A DNA stretch of 64,000 nt from Candidatus Latescibacterota bacterium (GTDB lineage: Bacteria > Latescibacterota > UBA2968 > UBA8231): assembly GCA_965219385.1 (NCBI GenBank), contig CBDCNM010000002.1, forward strand, positions 220,639 to 284,638, written 5' to 3'. The translations under genes were made by a program, and so were the position numbers. The notes under the pieces were generated by a model. That model did not search any database. It was given only the letters and a program-made list of their open reading frames with translations, and was not told the DNA's origin. Positions 50,802-63,658 of the stretch are shown here, piece by piece (position 1 is the stretch's first letter; the number at the start of each line of letters is the position of its first letter).

Positions 50802-52268
50802 GTAACCGTTCACAATTTTTCTGATTGACCATCGGCTTCTACGGTCCGATTCTATGTTCCATGCCTACGACGGTCCCCGATCCTGCCTGCCCTGGTTGCG
50901 TTGCTCTTCGAGCCGAAATGGCCGAGATGAAGCGGCAAATGGTGGCCTTGCAAGAGGCGCTGGCTCGGTCGAGAAGAATTCATCCAATAGTTCCAAGCCG
51001 CCCTCCTCCGATATCGTCAAACCGCCTAAACCGGCGGCGAAGCGAGGGAAAAAGCGCCGTCCGGGCGGCCAGCCTGGTCATGCCCAATACGAGCGGACCT
51101 TGTCTATAGAGCAGGCCGATGTGATCCACGCGCATACCTTGGATCGGTGTCCAGGCTGTGCCGACGATAGGCGGCTCCATTTGGTCGGTGCGGAGCAGAC
51201 GCGCTATCCGTATGAGTTGGTCGAAAAACCGATGTCTTGCAGGCGCATCAGTCCCCCCTCTACTGGTGTGCCTCCTGTGATCGAATCCAGGCGGCGCCCT
51301 TGCCTGCGGCGCTTAGCCAGGGGGGCCTGGTGGGCCCTCGACTAACCGGCTTGATGGGCTGGGGGCCATGTGTCCTATACGACCCTGCAGGCCTTGCTGG
51401 CCGAAGGGCTGGGCGCCCCCCTTTCGACGGGGTTGCTGGCCAAGGTCGTCGAAAGGGGGGCGCCCAGCCCTTGAGCCGATCTATCAGCCCCTACTCGAGG
51501 CTCTGCCCCATCAGCCGCAGCGCAACATCGACGAGACGGGCCCCAAAGACCAGGGCCATCGGTTATGGACCTGGGTGTTGGGCGCGCCCTCCTTTACCCT
51601 GTTTCACATCGCCCCCTCCCGAGGCAGCCAGGTCCTGGAAAACCTCTTGGGCGACGCCGGCGCCGCGGTGCCGGGGCACGATTACTTTTCGGCCTATCGC
51701 GCCTACATGCACAAGGCGCCGGTGACGGTACAGTTTTGCTTGGCGCATCTGATTCGCGAGGTGTGCTTTCTCACCCAGTCGACCGATCGAGCCATTGCCC
51801 AGTATGGCCAACGGCTCCTGGACGAGCTCAAAGCGCTGTTTGGCCTGATCCACCGGCGCGAGCACCTCCATCCGGAGCCCTTTCAACGCCGACTCGAACA
51901 GGCCCGCGAGCGCTTCTTGCAAAAAGCTCGACGAACCCAGGCCGGGGGGGCCGCGGCCAACCGGGCCCAGCGCTTGGGCACCCACGGCCGAGCTTACTTC
52001 ACCTTTATCACCTGTCCCGCTATCGAGCCGACCAACCATGGGGCCGAGCGGGCGTTGCGCTTTTGTGTGATCGACCGACGCATGACCCAAGGCACCCGAG
52101 GCCGCAAGGGTCAACAGTGGTGTGAGCGGTTCTGGACGATCCAAGCCACCTGCCGGCAACAAGGCCGGCGTGTGTGCCGCTTTATCCAACAAGCCGTTTA
52201 CGCGTATTTCCAGGACACGCAACCACTCTCCTTGATCCCGGCCTAATTCAAAAGCTGTGAACGGTTAC
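50802..52268 (+). mobile_element. IS66-family element, tnpC-only, frameshifted
   Basis: IRs GTAACCGTTCACA; NSSKPPSSD, GGQPGH, DET, QFCLAHLIR, PTNHGAERALR spread over several frames; flanking 8-mers do not match. Confidence 0.9.
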
Positions 52269-52358
52269 GGTTCATGTATGCATATGTATGGTAGGCCGAA
52301 AAGTAATCGTGGCCCACGACGGCGGTGCAGTCGGTGCCCAGGATGTCTTCTAGCTCGC

Positions 52359-52460
52359 GTGCAACCCTCTTCATAACCATTCACTCCCGATCAAAGTCAG
52401 CAAAAGCAGAAGCGGCGTCAAGATCGCTTCCGCTCATCAGGGTAAAAATAACTGCTGTTG
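52359..52460. repeat. Non-coding repeat copy A (internally deleted)
   Basis: GTGCAACCCTCTTCATAACCA joined to CCCGATCAAAGTCAGCAAAAGCAGAAGCGGCGTCAAGA...; homologous to 53229-53430 and 59235-59433. Confidence 0.85.
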
Positions 52461-52519
52461 ATCCGGGCACACCACGAATCCGAATCGACTGAAAAAGAGT
52501 GTGCGGGATTCGGCGCGAC

Positions 52520-53077
52520 CTAGATAAAGGCAGGGTTTTTGAGGTATTCTGCGAGGCTTGTGGCCTTTTGGTCACGGCTGGATAACAGGGGGTCGTCAAA
52601 CGGCCAGTCTACCCCGATATCCAGATCGTTCCAGGCAATGGAGCCCTCAGAGGATGGAGTGTAATAGCCGGTACACTTGTACTGCACCTCGGCAAAGTCC
52701 GTCAGCGTGACAAAGGCATGGCCGAATCCGCTCGGCAGCATGAACTGCTTCATATTATCCGCCGAAAGTTCTACGCCTACCCATTGTCCGAACGTGGGCG
52801 ATTTAACCCGCAAATCGACCCCTACGTCAAAGATCGCTCCCACTGTACAGCGGATCAGCTTTCCCACCGGTGCGCTCATGTCCTGATAGTGGAACCCTCG
52901 CAATACCTTGTAGGCCGAACGAGAGTGGTTGTCCTGCACGAACTCGTAGTTTAACCCATGATCTGAAAAGTGCTGTTTGTGGTAATTTTCAGTGAGGAAC
53001 CCCCTTTCATCGCGGAAGATTCTGGTTTCAATGATGATAAGGTCTTCTATATCGGTTGGGCCCACACTGATGTCCAT
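52520..53077 (-). CDS. rfbC: dTDP-4-dehydrorhamnose 3,5-epimerase
   Basis: DERG, FVQDNHSRS, VLRGFHYQ, VDLRVKSPTFGQW, GFGHAF. Confidence 0.95.
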   Translation of the reverse strand: MDISVGPTDIEDLIIIETRIFRDERGFLTENYHKQHFSDHGLNYEFVQDNHSRSAYKVLRGFHYQDMSAPVGKLIRCTVGAIFDVGVDLRVKSPTFGQWVGVELSADNMKQFMLPSGFGHAFVTLTDFAEVQYKCTGYYTPSSEGSIAWNDLDIGVDWPFDDPLLSSRDQKATSLAEYLKNPAFI

Positions 53078-53185
53078 AAATCCGCCTGGTTGATCTGGAG
53101 AGTGGCGGACTTGCTTTTGGTCCGGATTTTCCTCGGAAAGCCTCACCGCGTCTCCCCCTTTGCGGACGATTTGTAGAGCAGAAAG

Positions 53186-53214
53186 AAAAGCCCTGGATTT
53201 TCCAGGGCTTTTTT
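53186..53214. terminator. Bidirectional intrinsic terminator
   Basis: AAAAGCCCTGGA-TTT-TCCAGGGCTTTTTT. Confidence 0.85.
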
Positions 53215-53228
53215 ATATGGTAGCCCGT

Positions 53229-53430
53229 TTGCAACCCTCTTCACGACCACTCACCGTCAGGCCCGAGAGAAGAAAGCCTTGTATTTGAAGGACTTATGGA
53301 AAGTCGGGGCTTTGCGCGGAGGCAGAAGCGGGGTTGAAGCCAAATTCTCCTTTTCCGAATTAATGTCAGCAAAAGCGGAAGCGGCGTCAAGATCACTTCC
53401 GCCCTTCAGGGTCAAAACAGCCGCTGTTGG
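53229..53430. repeat. Non-coding repeat copy B
   Basis: TGCAACCCTCTT...CACTCACCGTCAGGCCCG...GGTTGAAGCCAA...GTCAGCAAAAGCGGAAGCGGCGTCAAGA...CAGGGTCAAAACAGC. Confidence 0.85.
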
Positions 53431-53538
53431 GACATGGGATCCAGGATCTCCGGGTCGTCGTCGTTGACGACGCTGTTCGGCAAGAGTAAGACCCCAATAA
53501 AGCCCCTAATAGACCCCAATTAAATACGCCTCTACTAG

Positions 53539-54985
53539 CTCGATTTTATCCAAACGCGCATGGCAGGAGGCCGGTATCCTCCGTACTGTTGATGGTATCC
53601 AAGCATCGACAGCCCAGGAGAAACCGATGAGCCCCCTGCCGAAAGATATAATAACGATTTTGTCGCCCTTTGCCCCCCTTTTTTCGAGCCGCGTTTGGCC
53701 GCAGGCTCAGACGCTGTTGGTCGGGGCGCTGTTAGCCCCGGGTAAACGCACGGTCAGCGCCGTGTTGGAGGTGTTGGGCTTGAGCCAACAGCCTACCTTT
53801 CAAACCTACCACCGGATCCTCAACCGCTGTGTGTGGTCGCCCCTGGCCGGCAGTAAGCTACTCCTCCAGGCGTTGGTGGCCGCCTTTGCCCCCCACGGGC
53901 CCCTGGTCCTGGGCCTGGATGAGACCATCGAGCGGCGCCGGGGCGCCCAGATTGGGGCCCGAGGCATCTACCGGGATCCCGTCCGCTCGAGTGGGCCCCA
54001 CCTGGTCAAGGCTAGCGGCTTGCGCTGGCTGTCGTTGATGCTGGTAGCGCCTATCCCTTGGGCGGATCGAAGTTGGGCCTTACCCTTTATGAGTGTGCTG
54101 TGTCCGTCGGCCCGCTACTATACTCAGCGCCAGCGCACCCCCCTCACCCTGTTGCAACGGGGGCAGACTATGCTCAAGCTGGTAGCGCGCTGGCTGCCCA
54201 CCCGCCGGCTGGTCGTGGTCGCCGATAGCACCTTCTCCGCCTTGGCCTTTCTCGACGCGGTTCGGCCCCACGTGGGGCTGATTACCCGCTTGCGGTTGGA
54301 TGCGGCCCTGTATGACCCACCACCAACCCGCACGCCGCACACGCGGGGACGCCCCCGCGGCAAAGGCGCCCGGCAGCCCACCCTCCAGCAGCACCTGGAC
54401 GATCCGACTACCCCTTGGCACCCCCTCACCCTGGACCGGTGGTATGCCGCCGGCCCCTATACAGTGGAAACCTACAGCCAAACGGCGCTGTGGTATCACA
54501 CTGGCTTGCCCGCCGTGCCCCTCCGCTGGCTGCTGATCCGAGACCCGGCCGGCCGCTTCGCGCCCCAAGCCTTGCTCTCGACCGATGTGCGTCTGTCCCC
54601 TCGGCAAATGCTGACCTATTTTCTCCAACGCTGGTCGGTAGAAACTACCTTTGAGGAAGCCCGCGCCCATCTGGGCATGGAAACCCAACGCCAATGGAAT
54701 GAGCGGGCCATTGCCCGGACCACGCCGGTCATCTTGGCCTTGTTTAGTCTGGTCGCCCTCATCGCCAATCGGCTGGCCCCCAAAAGCGCCTCCCCCTGCC
54801 ATGCCACGGCCTGGTATGGCAAACGAAAACCCACCTTTTCCGATGCCGTGGCCTGGGTCCGACAACGGCTCTGGCAGGCTTTTTCCAACCTGCCCAACCA
54901 ACACGACCTGATAAAAATCCCTCGAAGCCTACTCAACCGCTTGATACACACCGTCTCGTACGCTACATAAATGGATAAAGTCGAG
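53539..54985 (+). mobile_element. IS701-like element copy 2 (transposase 53627-54970)
   Basis: Same 1447-bp length and IRs as copy 1, inverted; TACTAG direct repeats; proteins differ at one visible residue (N/D). Confidence 0.92.
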
Positions 54986-54990
54986 TACTA

Positions 54991-55944
54991 GGCTGTGTAC
55001 GATAAAAGGTTTTTGAGCCAAATACGGATGAAAGCGAGTATGATCATCGCCTGATACCTGTCGGCGTGTTTTTCATATCGGGTGGCAATGCGTCGGTTTT
55101 CTTTGAGCCGTCCGATGAGTCGTTCCACCACATTGCGCTGCCGATATAAGTCCTTGTCGAATCCGATGGCCTCAGGGGGATACTCCCCCTGCCGATTTTT
55201 TCGATGGGCGATCACGGGCTTGGTTCGCCGTTGGCGCAGTTTCTCGCGGATGGATTGACTATCATAGGCTTTATCACCGGCCAGGGCTTCAAACCGGGTG
55301 CGCTTGGGACCGGGTTTGCCTCCAATGGCCACTGAATCGAGCAAGGCGTCTACCTGGGTGGATTCATGCTGCTGACCCGGGGTTATGGTAACCGTGATGG
55401 GCTTGCCCGCCCCTTCACAAAGGACATGAATTTTGGTGGTATAGCCGCCACGGCTTTGCCCAAGCCCCTGTTTTTGAAGGCTTTCTTCACGGCTTATGGA
55501 AACACCATTTATGTTTTTTTTGCCCCGGCGGCTGCTTTATGCGCCCGAACGATGCTCCCATCGAGGGCGGCGAACGTAAAATCGATCTGATCCATATGGC
55601 GCGCTTGGGCTTCTAACGCATCCAGGATCTGTTGCCATAAGCCTTTTTGTTCCCAACGACGAAACCGGTCGGCCCCCGTGCTCCAAGGGCCGTACCGGGG
55701 GGGCAAATCGCGCCAAGGCGCGCCGGTGCGTAAAATCCAGAAAATGCCGTTGAGCACTTGGCGATGACTCCGATAAGGGCAGCCCGGTTTGCCCGACCGT
55801 TCGGCAGGTAACAACGGCTTTAGCAGGGCAAATTCTTCATCGGTTAAGTCGTAGCGGGCCATCGGTATCCCCTCCTTCGATTCAATGGTTGAAAGAGAGT
55901 ATACCACGTCCCAATACTATTTCAAGCAATTATCGTACACAGCC
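54991..55944 (-). mobile_element. IS5-family element (IS427-like, programmed -1 frameshift at A8)
   Basis: IRs GGCTGTGTACGATAA, TA duplication; GIFWILRTGAPWRDLP, SRGGYTTKIH, DKAYDS, RNVVER. Confidence 0.92.
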
Positions 55945-56063
55945 TAGCCTCGTACACGCCTCCACCGCGCCGCTGGACCGCGACCAGTGGATGCCATGCC
56001 GCCAGCCTGCGATTTTTCAACACTGCTAAGGCCCTGCCGTTCGCTGGCGTGAGGGATTAGTTA

Positions 56064-57938
56064 GAGCTTATTCGAAAAGTATTGTTTAGATCAAAAAAAT
56101 CTATACGGCGCAAAAAATAGGGATGTAAAAAAGTGCCATAACCATTTATCTTAGATGAAAGTTACTGACCGGTAATTTTCCCTAAGAGGACGATTATGGC
56201 ACACCAATCGGACGCGCGTATGTGGTGGTCGGAGCCGCTGGTTTGGGCGGCCGGTGATTGTGAAATGAAAAAAGTCTTGGACGAGGCGCTGACCTTGTTG
56301 GCGCGGTGCCCTGCGATTCTCACCCGTATTGAAGCCGACCAGGACCGGTGGGCCAAAGCCAAGAAAAAGATACGCCAGGCCGACCAGCGTTGGCAAGCGG
56401 CCCAGACCTTGCCCCTGCCCGGGTTGGTCTGGGACGAAGCGCCGGCGCCGTCGGCCGATACGCTGGAGTTGGCCTCGGGTCGTCCGCGCATGGGGGCAGA
56501 GCTGGTCTATGTTTGCAGTGTGTTGCGTGGCTATTTGGGCTCGCTGACCGACCAGGCCGCCAAGGATCGGCTGCTCGATTCGACGACGTTGCACTTGTAT
56601 TGGCATAGCCGCGGCCTGTATTTTCCGGGCTGGACGACGATGGTAGAAAATGTCAATGCCCTGTCGAAGGAGACCCGCCACTACATCCTGGATGCGCAAC
56701 TGGCGATGATCCTGGACGAAGGGCTGGACGATTTTTCTCAGGCCCTCCTCGATAGCACGGCGGTGGAAGCCAACTCGGCCTGGCCCACCGATGCGCGCAT
56801 CCTGCTGGGCTTGCTGGAACGCGCCTTTCGGCGCAGCCAACAACTGACCCGCTTTGGGCTGTCGAATATCCCTAAATGGTGGGTTCCTCAGTGGCTCAAG
56901 AAACTGCGTCAATTGCTGTTTAAGATCAACAATACGGTGGGCCAACCGAAATCGAAAGGGAATTTGAAGAAACACTACCGGCAGTTTTTGCATAATGCCA
57001 CCAAGATCCTCGCATACTTCCTGCCCTACGGCGTCGACCGCGATCCGGTGCAGGAAGCAGCCGACCGGCCGCCTAGCCAGCAGGCCTTGGTGGGGCGGTT
57101 GTGGGACCGACTGATAGCCGACCTGAGCGATGCCTGTGCCGTTTATCAATATACCGAGGAGCGAATTTTTGAGGGCAAGGTGCGGCCGGCCGCCCAGAAA
57201 CGGTTGAGTCTGGCCGACGACGATGCCGCCTTCATCACCTCGGTCATTGGTTACAAGCCGCAGCTGGTGCGCTCGGAGCACGGGTTTATCCCCGCGCTGA
57301 TCGTGCCCCAGGGCAATGAAGCCGACAGCCCCCAGTTGGTGCCGCTGGTCCGACAGATCAAGGCGCGCATCGGCGTCTTGCCTAAAAAGGTCAGTGCCGA
57401 TGACGGCTATACTTCGGAAGAGGGCCGCAACGATCTGATCAAAGACGGGGTGCAGCAGGTGTCGTTTAGCGGCAGCCAAGGGAAACAGCTTTTGTCGGAA
57501 GAGGAGTGGAGCCATCCCGACTATGTGTGCGCCCGCAAAGGTCGATCGGCCGTCGAATCGTTGATCTTCGTACTTAAGCATGTGTTTGCCTTTGGTCGCT
57601 TGCGGCGAAGAGGCCACTCAGAGGTCGAGGCGGAACTGATGGAAAAAGTGATCGCCTACAATTTTCGGCGCATGGTCGAGGTGCGCCAGGCCCGGGAAGG
57701 CCCCACCCAGAAAAAAGCCGCCTGAAAACCTCCCCAGACGACCGGCCGATGAGCGAACACGTCGCTTCATTAGGAGTCGTGCGGCTAAAAGGAACGGGGG
57801 GCCGATGCGCCGCCGACAAAAAGGACTCAGACCAGGCCACACCGGCTAAACAACCCAACAAAGGATACCTCGTTTAAACCAACAACAGCGAGACACAACG
57901 AAAAAGGGACTTTCACAAAAGGCTTTTCGAATAAGCTC
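56064..57938 (+). mobile_element. IS with 509-aa DDE transposase (56196-57725; IS5/ISNCY-like, family uncertain)
   Basis: 16-bp perfect IRs GAGCTTATTCGAAAAG, TAGTTA direct repeats; DST, ADDGY, RSAVES motifs. Confidence 0.9.
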
Positions 57939-58012
57939 TAGTTAGGCACAAATCTCACGCAGCGCCAGACCGTCATCCGCACGATCCAACAGGGCGAGGA
58001 TGTCCTGCGCCC

Positions 58013-58975
58013 CTACTCTTCAATAATGCCGTGCCGATAGAAGGTACGAGCAATCAGTGGATTCCACGGCAGGGACTCGTGCGGTGCGAACAGTTTCTCC
58101 AGGGTCAACCCGAAATGCAGCGTGCCGGAAGAGGTCACCTCCACGCGGTCGTCGTAGACCGCCACGCCCACGGAGCCGCCGCCAATCGAGTAATCCCGAT
58201 GGCACAGAGCGTTTGCCAGCGACTCACGCGTTGCCAGGGGTGGGTAGAGCGGTTTGTCGATCCGTTCGATGCGATCCGCTTCGATCCGACCGGCAATGGG
58301 CAGGGTCTCGCGTAGGAAGCGTTCCGCACTCGCGAGGAGCGCGAAGGCGTTGCCGTGGAACTGTCGGTTGTCCAGAAACTCCGTGCGGTCGACGCCCCGA
58401 AAACGGGCGACACGGAGCAGGCACTGCGGCATTTCGACCTCGATACGCTCGGCGTTACCGAACAGCACCACCGCCGCGCGCCACAAGACCCCATCCCGGA
58501 AAAGCCCCAGGCCGCGCAGCAACTCGTCGGGTCCCTGAGTCCCCGGGTCCTCCAATCGGCCTCGCCGTATCGCCTCCGCGACGGTGCGTCGGATCTCTGC
58601 CACATCGAGATCTTCGACCGATCACCCGGTGGCGGGCTGGTCCTCCCAGCGTTGTTCGCTGTGCATGCGCTCGAAGAGCATGCGGTTGTACTCGTCAGCC
58701 GACATCGCCACTGTGGTGTTGCCAACCCGTCGATAGGCGGTACCCCGGTATTGGTACGGTCTCGCAGACCCCTGACTCACGTGGACTACGACTACCTCTC
58801 GGTTTCCCGCTACTTGAACCCGCTCAACCGCTAGAAAGGCCGGTGGCTCGATCCTTTGGACTTCGGAGCTCAGCTCCTCAATCGTCCGCTCGCTCACCTG
58901 CTGGCCGACCACATCTCCCGTCGGCGTGACACCCAGGACATGCCCGCCGCGCTGGTTGAGCATGGCACACATTCG
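58013..58975 (-). pseudogene. Fragment of an AlbA_2/Schlafen + RecG-C (HATPase_c_4)-type protein
   Basis: CAMLNQRGG..LGV, AYRRVGNTT, RESLANALCHRDY, DRVEVTSSG, NPLIA; frameshifts, both ends missing. Confidence 0.8.
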
Positions 58976-59234
58976 ATCTCTCGCTTTATTGAAAATATAT
59001 GAAGGAACGATAGGGTAAACCAGTCCAAGACAGGGCAGGTGAGTGACATTCACTGGCCGGGGACGGGCATGCCGGGGAAGCGATAGTCCTGAAGGAGGAC
59101 CGGTATACCCTCGAAGAAGCGCTGGACAAGGCAGTGCGGGAGTTCGTGCCGACCAGGAGAATCGACAGGAAGGTAGGCAAGCCGCGCTAAGGAATCAGCC
59201 AAAGGTGGCGGCTGGCTATTTCTGGTAGGCCGTG

Positions 59235-59433: not shown

Positions 59434-59595
59434 AGGCGTGAGGGCCAAGGATGTCCAGGTCGTCGTTCCCGAAGCTGGCGAGGGGACCGCCTTCAAGCAG
59501 AGGTTGCTTTTGTCCCCCGTTTGTGGTACATTGTCCCCTGTTGATGAAAGGCGGAGGTACGCTGATGCCACCTGTCGATGAAGGCGGAGGTAGCT

Positions 59596-59853
59596 ATGGC
59601 TAAGACCGAAATGATCCGTGCCCGCGTTGAACCGGAGTTGAAGTGCCAAGCTGAAGAGGTCTTCTCCGAGCTTGGGCTGTCGCCAACCGAGGCGATCACC
59701 CTGTTCTATACCCAAGTCACCCTGCATCGCGGTTTGCCCTTCGCGGTGCGGGTTCCCAACGACGAGACCATCGAAGCGCTGCGCCAGGCCCGCGCGGGCG
59801 AGGGGCTCACCGAATACGCCGACCTGGAGGCGCTCAAAGCCGAGCATGGTTGA
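59596..59853 (+). CDS. RelB/DinJ antitoxin
   Basis: IRARVEPELK...LGLSPTEAI...GLPF..PNDETIEA; upstream TTGTCCCC direct repeat may be the operator. Confidence 0.92.
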   Translation: MAKTEMIRARVEPELKCQAEEVFSELGLSPTEAITLFYTQVTLHRGLPFAVRVPNDETIEALRQARAGEGLTEYADLEALKAEHG

Positions 59854-59856
59854 TCC

Positions 59857-60123
59857 ATGCGCCTGCTCACCACGAATCGATTCGAAAAGGACCTCAAGCG
59901 TGCCGGGAGACGCGGCAAGGATCTCGATAAGCTCTGGCGTGTCGTTGAGCAACTCTTGTCACGACAGCCCCTCGACCCACGGAATCGGCCACACCGTTTA
60001 CCGGGTGATTGGTCTGCCTGCTGGGAATGCCACCTCGAACCGGACTGGCTGTTGATCTGGAACCAGGGGGAGGATGTCCTCATCCTGGTGCGAACCGGAA
60101 CCCACGCCGATTTGTTCGACTGA
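59857..60123 (+). CDS. YafQ-family mRNA interferase toxin
   Basis: FEKDLKR, HRLPGDW, ECHLEPDWLLI, RTGTHADLF. Confidence 0.93.
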   Translation: MRLLTTNRFEKDLKRAGRRGKDLDKLWRVVEQLLSRQPLDPRNRPHRLPGDWSACWECHLEPDWLLIWNQGEDVLILVRTGTHADLFD

Positions 60124-60505: not shown

Positions 60506-61000
60506 CTATTCCTCCTCTGCGGGGCCGAGTAATTCGTCTAGTTTAGTCTTGAGCTTCTGCCCGTCTCCGGGCCGATACCCCTGGTGCTTGTACCATACTG
60601 TTCCATCGGTCGCAATAATCAGGGTCGCCGGGATGCCCACCAGGTGGAATTGCTTGAGCACCTCGTTGGTCTTGTCCAGCAAAACCGGCAACGCTAGCTT
60701 GTGGCGCTGCATAAAGGGATGCACCTTGGGCAGGTTCCTGGGGCCATCGACATTGATCGTCAGCACCTGTACACCGCGCTCGGCGTATTTTTCGGATAGG
60801 GATTGGAGCTTGGGCAGGCCCTTGATACAGGGCTTGCACCAAGTCGCCCAGAAGTCGAAGACCACCGGCCCTTTTTTGAGCGCCTCCGCCAGCGAAAAGG
60901 TCGATCCGTCGAGGTTTTCCAGCACCAGCTGCGGTGCCTTTTCTGCGCGGACCGTGCCGCCGAGCAGCAAGTAGGCCGCCAACGCAAAGATTGGTTTCAT
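60506..61000 (-). CDS. Exported TlpA/ResA-family thiol-disulfide oxidoreductase
   Basis: Signal peptide, DFWATWCKPC, cis-Pro GIP. Confidence 0.92.
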   Translation of the reverse strand: MKPIFALAAYLLLGGTVRAEKAPQLVLENLDGSTFSLAEALKKGPVVFDFWATWCKPCIKGLPKLQSLSEKYAERGVQVLTINVDGPRNLPKVHPFMQRHKLALPVLLDKTNEVLKQFHLVGIPATLIIATDGTVWYKHQGYRPGDGQKLKTKLDELLGPAEEE

Positions 61001-61057: not shown

Positions 61058-62581
61058 ATGCGTTCGATTTTCGTGTTCACACTGCTTCTGGTGGCCCCCC
61101 TCCAGGCCCAGCTACGCCTTTCGACTCTGACCGAAGCCCAAGTCGGCAACCTACCTGGCGACCAGCCCAGTGACCTGCGCACAATTTACCACCAGTTCAG
61201 CCTTGACTACGCACTTGATGCCTTCCAGCTCGGGGTCCGCGGCGAGACCTTCGGCGCCAGCGCACCTAACCGCAACTACGGCCAGATCCTCCAGCGCTCC
61301 GCCTCCTACCGCCGGGGGCCTTTCCGAGCTACCGTCGGCCATTTCTACGCCATTGTTGCCAGCGGTCTTCTCTTTCACGCCTTTGAATTGCCCGGCGTCA
61401 TCACCGAAGAGCGGGGCGCCCGCCGCCGCTACCAGATCGTGCGCGACCTCGACGGCGTTCAGCTGCACTACCGTGCCGCCCGGGCCGAGGTGCTGCTTTT
61501 GCGCGGCGCTCCGGTCAACAGCAACCTGCCCCCCGGATTGGAGGGGGTTGACCGCCGCCCCGACGCGCTCCAGGGCGGCTCGCTCCAGCTCAAGCCGCAC
61601 CCGCACTTCGACGCTGGTTTCAGCGCTATCCGCTACGAAATCGGCAGGCGGCAAGAAACGGGCGCGGCTCTCAACGCCCGCTGGCGGCTCGCGCCCCTGC
61701 TCGACCGCCTCGGCCTCGCCGGGGCCTACATCGATCTCCACGGCGAGTACGCCCAGCGGGACGTTGCGCTCGATCGTTTCTTCTCGCTCGACCGCACACT
61801 GGGCCGCGCCCTGTACCTTGCGGCCACCCTGGCTTCCGGGCCCTGGGGATTGAGCCTGGAGTACAAAGACTACCAGGACTTCGCCCTCGAGCACATCAAC
61901 AATCCCCCACCCCTGATCCGCGAACACTCGGCCTACCTCCTCAACCGCAACACCCACGACCTGCTCGCCGACGACGAGCAAGGCTACCAAGCCGAGCTGA
62001 GCTGCGCCCTGGCCGGCGGCCGGACCCTCACCGCCAACCTCACCCACGCCGTGCGCCGCCGCGCTCCGGGCGCGGCCGACGACGAAGTCCTGCGCGAACT
62101 CTTTGTGCAAATGGATTCACCGCTGGGCCAACGCGTCGATGTGCAACTCTTTGCCGATTTCAGCCGCAATCGGATTCTCATTGACGACGAGAGCCGCTTT
62201 TTCGGCACGCGCTGGGCGTGGTCTCCGGACGGGTCCCACACCCTCGAGTTCGACGCCCAGTTCCAGGACGTCGATCGGCGCTTCGGCACTCTCGCCCTGC
62301 CCTACACCAACTTCTACTACGCCCTGGCGGCCCACCGCGCCCCCGGCCTCTCCGCCGCCGTGCAGGTCCAACGCACCTCCGACGAATTGGAAACCGGTGC
62401 CGATCCCTCCGGCGTGACCTGGTGGCGGGGCCTCAACCTCGGTGCTGATATCCGCGACGGCCACAGCCTCAATGTTTTCGCCGGCCAGCGCCGCTCGGGC
62501 CTGGCCTGCACGGCCGGTATCTGCTACGAGGTTTTAGGGTTTGAGGGGGTCGAAGTCCGGCTGCTCAACCGCTTCTTCTGA
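61058..62581 (+). CDS. Outer-membrane beta-barrel with C-terminal CxxxxC (DUF6029-like by recollection)
   Basis: Signal peptide (LQA-Q), amphipathic strands, NNPPPLIREH, GQRRSGLACTAGICYEV, terminal Phe; ATG 61058 after AGGAG. Confidence 0.7.
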   Translation: MRSIFVFTLLLVAPLQAQLRLSTLTEAQVGNLPGDQPSDLRTIYHQFSLDYALDAFQLGVRGETFGASAPNRNYGQILQRSASYRRGPFRATVGHFYAIVASGLLFHAFELPGVITEERGARRRYQIVRDLDGVQLHYRAARAEVLLLRGAPVNSNLPPGLEGVDRRPDALQGGSLQLKPHPHFDAGFSAIRYEIGRRQETGAALNARWRLAPLLDRLGLAGAYIDLHGEYAQRDVALDRFFSLDRTLGRALYLAATLASGPWGLSLEYKDYQDFALEHINNPPPLIREHSAYLLNRNTHDLLADDEQGYQAELSCALAGGRTLTANLTHAVRRRAPGAADDEVLRELFVQMDSPLGQRVDVQLFADFSRNRILIDDESRFFGTRWAWSPDGSHTLEFDAQFQDVDRRFGTLALPYTNFYYALAAHRAPGLSAAVQVQRTSDELETGADPSGVTWWRGLNLGADIRDGHSLNVFAGQRRSGLACTAGICYEVLGFEGVEVRLLNRFF

Positions 62582-62583
62582 CC

Positions 62584-63414
62584 TCACCTGAGCAGCAGCA
62601 GCTTGCGGATCACCACGTGCCCGCCGGCCCGCAGCCGGTAAAAGTACACCCCGCTGGTTACCTCTCGCCCCGTCTGGTCGCGGCCGTCCCAGCGCACCGC
62701 GAACGCCCCGGCCGCGGCGGGCCCCTGCACGAGCACCGCCACCGGCTGGCCGAGCAGATTGTAGATTGCCAGCTCGACCTGGCTCGGCCGCGGCAGCGCG
62801 AAGCGGATCACCGTATCGCTGTTGAAAGGATTGGGCGCGTTCTGCGCCAGGGACAGGCCCCCGGGCGCGGACGCCCGAGCAGACGCCTCCACCGCCGTTT
62901 CGGTCACCTCTTCCGGGGGGGGCAGCGCAGCAAGGGCCAGCACCACCTCGTCGCGCAGCTCGTCCATGGGTACCAGGGAACTGGTCTTGTAGCGGAAGAG
63001 GCCCTCGTGGTCGATGATGGCAAAGGTCTGATTGGCTTGCCCATACGCGGTTGCCATCCGGCTGGCGTTCAGCAAGAGGGGCATCGTAACCCCCTTGTCC
63101 ACGCGCCAGCGGGTCCGCAACTGGGCCTCGGTGCCGTCCCACACCTCGGCCCCCAGCGCGATAAAGGGCTCGTCGGCAAATTCCTGCCAGATTTCTTCGA
63201 AGCTCTCGGCACGCGAGAGACAGGCCGGTCAGCTATGGCCGAAAAAGAAAATCAGCACGACTTGGCCGTCGAAGTCGCTCAGGGCCGCGGTGCCGCCGTC
63301 GAGCCGGTCCAGCAGGAAGGCGGGGGCCGCCTGTCCTACTTGCGGCGCCTGGGCGCCTAGGGCAGAAGCCCACAACACCGCCAAACTCGCCAAACGCAAC
63401 AAAGACTTGCTCAT
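62584..63414 (-). CDS. Predicted selenoprotein: signal peptide - redoxin (UxxC) - FlgD-Ig/T9SS-like C-terminal domain, 276 aa
   Basis: ORFs 63229-63510 and 62584-63144 share a frame and are separated by a single TGA (63229-63231) in FFFGHS-U-PAC; tail QNAPNPFN...IYNLLGQ...WDGRD...SGVYFYRL. Confidence 0.88.
63203..63219 (-). promoter_or_regulatory. Bacterial SECIS-like hairpin
   Basis: CUCUCG-CGUGC-CGAGAG starting 10 nt after the UGA; the loop begins at +16 with GU at +17/+18. Confidence 0.7.
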
Positions 63415-63658
63415 GGTGAATCTCCTTAGTTTTGCCGCACAAACTTCTGCATGCCGTGGGCACAGCCCGGGAACCACCCCGGGGGATTGATGCGCTCGCC
63501 CGCGCTCCATTCGAATACCACAAACGGGTCGTCTGGACCAATCGCGCTCCGTTCTTGCCGTGCGGTGGTGCGGGCCATTTATTTTAACTTACTCCATGGA
63601 CGCCTCAGCCGCAACCTTCATCTCTTGAACCCCCAGGCTGAATGGAGCTATAAACGCT

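Follow-up and report, generated by a model that had tools for sequence, protein, structure and literature searches.

A predicted selenocysteine-containing, apparently surface-sorted redoxin next to a TlpA-DUF6029 gene pair in Candidatus Latescibacterota

When examining a stretch of 64,000 nucleotides from the Candidatus Latescibacterota assembly GCA_965219385.1 (hereinafter, the window), we considered a locus in which two open reading frames predicted with translation table 11 (63229-63510 and 62584-63144) lie in the same frame and are separated by a TGA codon. The question raised by this locus is whether the TGA terminates a gene or specifies selenocysteine (Sec) within a longer one and, in the latter case, where the product would act and how it would be supplied with electrons. 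We consider it probable that the locus encodes a surface-sorted Sec thiol-redox enzyme that faces outward within an envelope redox unit of three genes; the parts of this reading differ in strength and are discussed in turn.

A single reading frame with an internal TGA

The two frames, as the preliminary description had it, are parts of one frame with a lone TGA between them. The strand, which that description did not give, is the minus strand: the frame (63414-62584) opens with an ATG, runs for 276 codons up to its closing TGA and contains a single further TGA, at codon 62, flanked as in GQVVLIFFFGHS-*-PAC (VVLIFFFGHS-*-PAC). The following features were delineated in and next to this frame.

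62584..63414, minus strand: whole predicted selenoprotein gene of 276 codons, closed by a TGA (translation; homologs share the KLLLLR end, followed by TAG or TGA)
63422..63427, minus strand: Shine-Dalgarno-like AAGGAG located 7 nt upstream of the ATG (read off the sequence)
63229..63231, minus strand: in-frame TGA, predicted Sec62, the U of U-P-A-C (family codons, alignment with PDB 3kcm, Cys in P0196 and P0200)
63220..63222, minus strand: Cys65, putative resolving residue of UxxC (64/64 family rows; invariant in 39/39 sequences of alignment A4)
63203..63219, minus strand: hairpin of the bacterial SECIS type with a stem of 6 bp and the loop CGUGC from +16 (comparative analysis)

As had been suspected, standard annotation misses this gene: the public gene calls contain only its downstream half, the 186-aa P0002. 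The name given to close relatives is 'T9SS type A sorting domain-containing protein', and relatives at 70-76% identity come from records titled Ca. Latescibacterota or Gemmatimonadetes MAGs. The listed covering contigs from the public runs X1, X4, X10 and X11 (of which X10 and X11 are sponge metatranscriptomes; the low-share runs X14-X16 were left out of this comparison) contain no other letters at the TGA, so an assembly error is not the explanation, and TGC or TGT, the reading that the preliminary description had named as counter-evidence, does not appear in these contigs from independent runs. The gene stretch is present in four sponge metatranscriptome runs, all of one study; being contigs, the RNA runs show presence of the sequence rather than its strand, level or transcription. 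The promoter scan of the locus revealed no sigma-70 promoter site, and the terminator scan revealed no excess of terminator-like sites over chance.

The host genome (94% complete, 2 contigs) encodes all the components of the Sec machinery that were sought. In profile searches, selA (553 bits) adjoining selB (343 bits) and selD (358 bits), which carries an in-frame TGA of its own, scored over the curated cut-offs, as did tRNA-Sec at 69 bits, and an ordinary tRNA-Trp(CCA) is present as well; at the default threshold, tRNA-Sec is the only tRNA with a TCA anticodon. Among the 168 genomes of the phylum, selA is present in 131, including every genome of the window's family that has the gene described here. 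The five family genomes that lack selA, which are related to one another and so not independent, have no full-length redoxin among the 150 listed rows and no match to DUF6029. Among the best 150 of the approximately 2500 rows obtained from the 168 genomes, full-length and redoxin-domain matches occur only in the window's family, and the family matches so listed carry one TGA each, with an additional TAG in one of them.

The codon was extracted at 91 loci, which gave 82 non-duplicate rows, 64 of them family members. All 64, down to approximately 34% identity, contain TGA followed by Cys at +3 (UxxC), with no TAA or TAG at the position of codon 62, and the tail pattern is recognizable in 58 of them; the remaining 18 rows are generic TlpA-like or Prx-like genes with TGC or TGT. 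Two natural Cys versions were identified, namely, P0196 (GFRCPVC) and P0200 (GHNCPVC), whereas Trp, another potential objection raised beforehand, was never found in the rows seen. In the alignment with 3kcm, whose motif is WCPPC, the TGA falls on the first, nucleophilic Cys of this ResA/TlpA-type CxxC, where it had originally been placed. At one locus (L175, 1844-4997), three tandem copies of the redoxin gene follow TlpA-DUF6029, two with TGA and one (P0196) with Cys, a natural Sec/Cys comparison.

If the TGA were a true stop, the locus would represent either a pseudogene or a pair of ORFs translated independently, in keeping with its database annotation. The public call of the downstream half alone would be in line with this interpretation, and so would the frequency of TGA, which ends more of the long frames of the host genome (423/896) than any other stop does, but a product of the downstream half by itself would have neither the strand nor the helix of the active site, the synonymous sites of the hairpin are frozen, and the retention of TGA at the same catalytic position throughout the family, never as TAA or TAG, refutes termination in practice, making it highly improbable. 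Even less credible is a changed genetic code that assigns TGA to Trp, Gly or Cys, for which we found no support and which stop usage already refutes, since TGA ends the large share of long frames noted above, and this very gene where homologs use TAG, so that the code is not globally changed, and since the sole tRNA with a TCA anticodon, at the default threshold, is tRNA-Sec. Thus, the two short genes produced by gene callers are pieces of a single gene that, judging from the comparative evidence, encodes a selenoprotein, with insertion of Sec at codon 62 strongly supported.

The hairpin (CUCUCG-CGUGC-CGAGAG) was described beforehand as lying 16 nt downstream of the TGA and as matching the bacterial SECIS (bSECIS) consensus. 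The 6-bp hairpin is indeed there, but the figure of 16 nt applies to the start of the loop (a 15-nt spacer), the stem itself beginning closer to the UGA, at a distance of 10 nt. According to the consensus, the loop consists of 3-9 nt with a G in its first two positions, the stem of 4-16 bp, the distance from UGA to loop is 16-37 nt, and the minimum free energy is -7.5 kcal/mol or lower (PMC13188914). The hairpin agrees with the consensus in loop size, stem length and the loop G; its spacer is borderline, the 15 nt being at or just under the minimum, with the same offset in 61 of the 64 family genes, and its energy is -8.4 kcal/mol for +1 to +33 with flanks compared to -6.8 kcal/mol for the hairpin alone. 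The 72-nt fold from the UGA is no more stable than expected (z = +0.38 against shuffles).

Accordingly, the case for this putative element is comparative rather than thermodynamic, and the comparison is decisive. Such a hairpin is present in 64/64 family genes as opposed to 296/1268 control positions of the same genes, and only 33/1268 at the same offset. Across 38 distant members, the four conserved codons of the hairpin are represented by a single codon in 100, 100, 89 and 100% of the sequences, whereas 54 other conserved codons average 59%, and only one of them reaches at least 90%. At the pair +13/+23, 24 genes have U-A and 38 have G-C, a difference that runs between subfamilies and represents one compensatory event. 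Similar hairpins, with loops from +18 to +22, accompany the TGA of SelD and of five more candidate genes in the host genome. In the proposed mechanism, SelB would bind the hairpin just 3' of the UGA, leading to the insertion of Sec at codon 62.

The redoxin domain and the sorting tail

The predicted protein consists of four regions.

63352..63414, minus strand: predicted Sec-pathway signal peptide, residues 1-21, ending in ALGA, with Gln as the mature start (sequence and hydropathy)
62920..63351, minus strand: redoxin domain (AhpC-TSA / ResA-TlpA-like thioredoxin fold), residues 22-165 (PF00578, PF08534, 3kcm alignment, alignment A4)
62851..62919, minus strand: Pro/Glu/Thr/Ala linker, of very variable length among homologs (homolog comparison)
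62587..62850, minus strand: T9SS type A / FlgD-Ig C-terminal sorting domain (TIGR04183, PF13860, genome matches)

The redoxin domain scores 51 bits with PF00578 (AhpC-TSA; residues 26-141, spanning the TGA; cut-off 26) and 34.4 bits with PF08534 (Redoxin), over the gathering score, so that with its UxxC the protein falls within the definition of the PF00578/PF08534 class of UxxC redoxins. More specific models give low scores, 31 bits for ResA against a cut-off of 170 and 23 for PRK09437 against 140, and none of the 39 family members strongly matches any NCBIfam selenoprotein model. A deiodinase-like dehalogenase, which would be appealing for a symbiont of sponges, was considered and rejected because the 17.5 bits obtained with NF038285 (cut-off 250) are non-specific, below even the 25.3 bits of the neighbouring TlpA. 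The single-sequence AlphaFold model of the selenoprotein has a pLDDT of 37, too low to be of use.

By sequence and profile, the closest solved relatives are the proteins of the ResA/TlpA/DsbE group (PDB 3kcm, 4nmu), with U62 falling on the first Cys. In the TlpA/ResA disulfide reductases, a cis-Pro loop faces the CxxC. By contrast, the selenoprotein has Sec in place of this Cys, no Trp before the CxxC and no cis-Pro, the Pro of 3kcm being aligned with Gln or Asn and no conserved Pro being detectable in alignment A4; it also differs from these relatives in having a predicted soluble signal peptide and a surface-sorting tail. The peroxiredoxin signature, PxxxT/SxxC(U) with an Arg, is absent as well, the family having GHS-U-PAC with an invariant Gly at -3 from Sec (alignment A4). 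Lacking both the cis-Pro and the peroxiredoxin signature, the protein cannot be assigned a reaction or a substrate. By analogy with thioredoxin-fold chemistry, the selenolate of Sec62 would attack a disulfide or peroxide at the surface, and Cys65 would then resolve this intermediate to a selenenylsulfide.

The N-terminus, with K3 and R7, a hydrophobic stretch at residues 4-21 and ALGA-Q, was judged by eye and by hydropathy to resemble a cleavable signal peptide. At the opposite end, the T9SS/FlgD-like tail noted in the preliminary description is borne out by TIGR04183 (residues 194-273, 38.3 bits, cut-off 23) and by FlgD_ig, PF13860 (residues 203-260, 34.6 bits, cut-off 27), with the protein ending in RKLLLLR; Pfam Por_Secre_tail (PF18962) gives 21.1 bits, below its cut-off of 27. 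The tail region is included in 87 of the 91 other matches of the selenoprotein in the genome, and many of these proteins are very large.

The check for T9SS genes suggested at the outset had a mixed outcome. SprA (633 bits; G000:C2:2511657-2516312), seven PorV-family genes over the cut-off, and PorU (657 bits; C2:295074-299459), followed by PorV and located 11 kb from the selenoprotein gene, are all present in the host genome, and SprA was found in 163 of the 168 phylum genomes. GldM and GldN, however, were found in 0/21 genomes and no GldK scored over the cut-off, the control genomes yielding no match to any of the three either; possibly, the type IX system of Latescibacterota employs a motor different from that of Bacteroidota. 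PorV acts as the shuttle for type A cargo, and PorU cleaves this cargo, which is anchored or released (PMC10202324). Given the domain match and the available machinery, the selenoprotein would be exported via the Sec pathway and then through the SprA/PorV translocon by virtue of its type A tail, which PorU would probably cleave before the protein is anchored or released, so that a surface location appears likely.

A precedent is HBP35 of Porphyromonas gingivalis, a surface-attached thioredoxin-motif protein with a C-terminal domain that is conserved, which shows thioredoxin activity in vitro and binds hemin (PMC2907840). The motif and the C-terminal domain of this kind are shared with the selenoprotein, whereas HBP35 is a Cys-only, hemin-binding protein from Bacteroidota that is compared here by description; it is absent from the PDB sequence matches. 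Because HBP35 is both surface-attached and active, a thioredoxin-motif protein with a tail of this kind can be both.

Alternatively, the Sec enzyme might be periplasmic, with the tail being a generic FlgD-Ig module, and might work with TlpA there, for example, keeping the cysteines of the barrel described below reduced during assembly. The missing GldM and GldN, the subthreshold scores of GldK and Por_Secre_tail, and the existence of relatives without a type A tail are compatible with this possibility, but the TIGR04183 match, the presence of SprA, PorU and PorV, and the approximately 87 other proteins, many of them very large, with the same C-terminal region argue against it, and we regard a periplasmic location as unlikely.

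The relatives without a type A tail belong to sister families in which the same redoxin is joined either to an Ig-like and dockerin-like EF-hand tail (L173-L177, L179, L187, L208) or to a short SWGxIK-type end (L190, L191, L213). These ends may be alternative surface-sorting signals, and such a tail swap is as expected for a swappable display module. A beta-lactamase-family domain is inserted before the tail in two members of the family comparison; in L165, L166 and L200-L204, the combination of Sec redoxin, beta-lactamase-family (PF00144) domain and T9SS tail amounts to 640 aa, and these fused genes still adjoin TlpA-DUF6029. Among close relatives (L058-L066), the linker has grown into long acidic ET/EA repeats, with up to approximately 100 extra residues. 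Only one longer Cys-bearing fusion was found among 8000 scored candidates of 411-2000 aa, which is weak evidence that such fusions are rare.

The TlpA-DUF6029 pair and the supply of electrons

Two neighbouring genes, which the preliminary description did not mention, carry most of the mechanistic interest.

61058..62581, plus strand: DUF6029 outer-membrane beta-barrel (PF19494, 49 bits; Atlas 0.98; AlphaFold pLDDT 94.8; linkage)
62507..62524, plus strand: barrel Cys484-x4-Cys489 codons (CxxGxC), in the hairpin before the last strand (homologs, secondary structure)
60506..61000, minus strand: TlpA/ResA-like periplasmic thiol-disulfide reductase with WCKPC (PF00578, 87.7 bits; ResA model 102, below 170)

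The DUF6029 gene is convergent with the selenoprotein gene, with a 2-bp gap between the stops, and divergent from the TlpA gene, so the trio, not being co-oriented in the host genome, is not one operon. Nevertheless, the selenoprotein gene lies within 4 kb of DUF6029 in 47 of the 50 family genomes that have DUF6029 and a listed Sec redoxin, and the trio occurs in five different gene orders or orientations, a variety that speaks for selection on the linkage and not just for its inheritance. At 20 further DUF6029 loci (16 from sister families and 4 from the window's family), TlpA is adjacent in all 20; a TGA redoxin accompanies the pair in 10, the downstream half of one in 2 more, and a WCAPC lipoprotein in 1, with no redoxin of this family detected within approximately 5 kb at the remaining 7. 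Conversely, 21 of the 69 listed family copies are not beside DUF6029, and the Sec enzyme is thus an optional member of the trio. On a distant metagenome contig (L210), recovered in a scan with one distant family member as the query, TlpA, DUF6029 and the redoxin are all co-oriented. At L188 and L189 (genomes G099 and G098), TlpA-DUF6029 is preceded by a 905-aa T9SS-tailed protein, and the redoxin copies are elsewhere in these genomes.

The AlphaFold model of DUF6029 is a barrel of approximately 24 strands by count. Foldseek found no close solved relative, the nearest folds being usher pores (TM ~0.5) and generic large barrels. Cys484 and Cys489, located between the last two strands, have been retained together in 96 of the 97 homologs, and the mature portion has just two Cys in 84 of the 97; strand parity would place the loop that bears them on the outward side.

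These observations are compatible with an envelope redox unit that would comprise a periplasmic TlpA, the DUF6029 barrel and an outward-facing Sec enzyme. A surface redox enzyme raises the question of its electron source, for which the conserved TlpA-DUF6029 pair is a testable candidate. An enzyme outside the outer membrane needs recharging, and a relay would be an economical route, the simplest version of which would run from DsbD to TlpA, then to the barrel Cys pair and finally to the Sec enzyme. The known cascades that connect DsbD/CcdA with TlpA/ResA operate by thiol-disulfide exchange from an inner-membrane donor and end in the periplasm. Such an exchange chain would be common to the two systems, and a DsbD-type gene is present in the host genome; however, the proposed relay would extend through an outer-membrane barrel, an extension of which we found no description in the papers searched. 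Transfer of thiol/selenol equivalents across the outer membrane, from DsbD via TlpA and the barrel Cys pair to a T9SS-displayed selenoenzyme, is therefore offered as a tentative proposal. If it holds, these sponge-associated Latescibacterota would possess a continuously rechargeable surface reductase or peroxidase; if it does not, a solid correction of annotation, of modest interest, is left.

Just as conceivable, and just as speculative, is the possibility that the barrel imports a disulfide- or selenium-containing solute that the Sec enzyme would reduce or release outside and TlpA would handle inside, with no passage of electrons via the Cys pair; this is a variant of the preferred reading of a three-gene envelope redox unit rather than an exclusive competitor. 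The large size of the barrel with its resemblance, if distant, to usher pores, and the outward Cys loop, which is not obviously reachable by TlpA, speak for import, as does the suggestion, from HHpred similarity, that DUF6029 is a polysaccharide porin (PMC9603273). On the other side, no TonB plug or substrate-binding gene recurs beside the trio in the loci inspected, and most barrels (84 of 97, as noted above) have two cysteines and no more.

Relation to catalogued selenoproteins and other features of the genome

The enzyme class itself is already catalogued: Table 1 of PMC13188914 includes predicted selenoprotein classes with PF00578 (UxxC/UxxU) and PF08534 (UxxC), named 'Prx-like thiol:disulfide oxidoreductase' and 'Redoxin family protein', respectively, which have in common with the protein described here the Pfam domains, UxxC, and a TGA with a downstream hairpin. 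In contrast to it, no class in that table is given a T9SS/FlgD tail. The same table lists GOS_C (NF045500), another UxxC class, which shares this motif but matches neither the selenoprotein nor any of the 39 family members by profile. The term 'secret' has 0 occurrences in the main text of this review. BSepDB has been built by tblastn over GTDB (PMC13326102), and the gene may be listed there under a generic class. A literature search that covered mainly openly accessible papers brought up no publication dealing with a selenoprotein that bears a T9SS tail, with T9SS or selenocysteine in Latescibacterota, or with the TlpA-DUF6029-Sec redoxin trio, and no mention of DUF6029 beyond that in PMC9603273, which concerns polysaccharide export. 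What is added, then, is a mis-annotated family of selenoproteins that are apparently directed to the cell surface, a location absent from the main text of the prokaryotic catalogue PMC13188914, together with a first functional lead for DUF6029 other than polysaccharide export.

Six more candidates with an in-frame TGA and a hairpin were identified in the host genome (G000), at C2:185448 (+), C2:785808 (+), C2:480728 (-), C2:3407715 (-), C1:40078 (-) and C1:39298 (-). One of them is SelD; the AhpC-TSA type is represented by three, namely, a BCP-like peroxiredoxin with TxxU, a Prx-like protein with UxxC and a ResA-like protein with WUGC; the other two, tandem paralogs on C1, belong to one further family, tentatively DUF3179. 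A TGA read-through scan based on coding potential only gave 542 candidates, mostly adjacent genes or shadows, a number that is no count of the selenoproteome; the scan was of use only to spot the two C1 paralogs.

Just beyond TlpA, the window contains genes for a RelB/DinJ-like antitoxin and a YafQ-like toxin (59578-60123, +), and farther on, a cluster of DDE transposases (51368-59053; 53627-54970, 56196-57725 and fragments), within which lie an rmlC-like epimerase gene (52520-53146) and a split AlbA_2/Schlafen gene (58013-59053).
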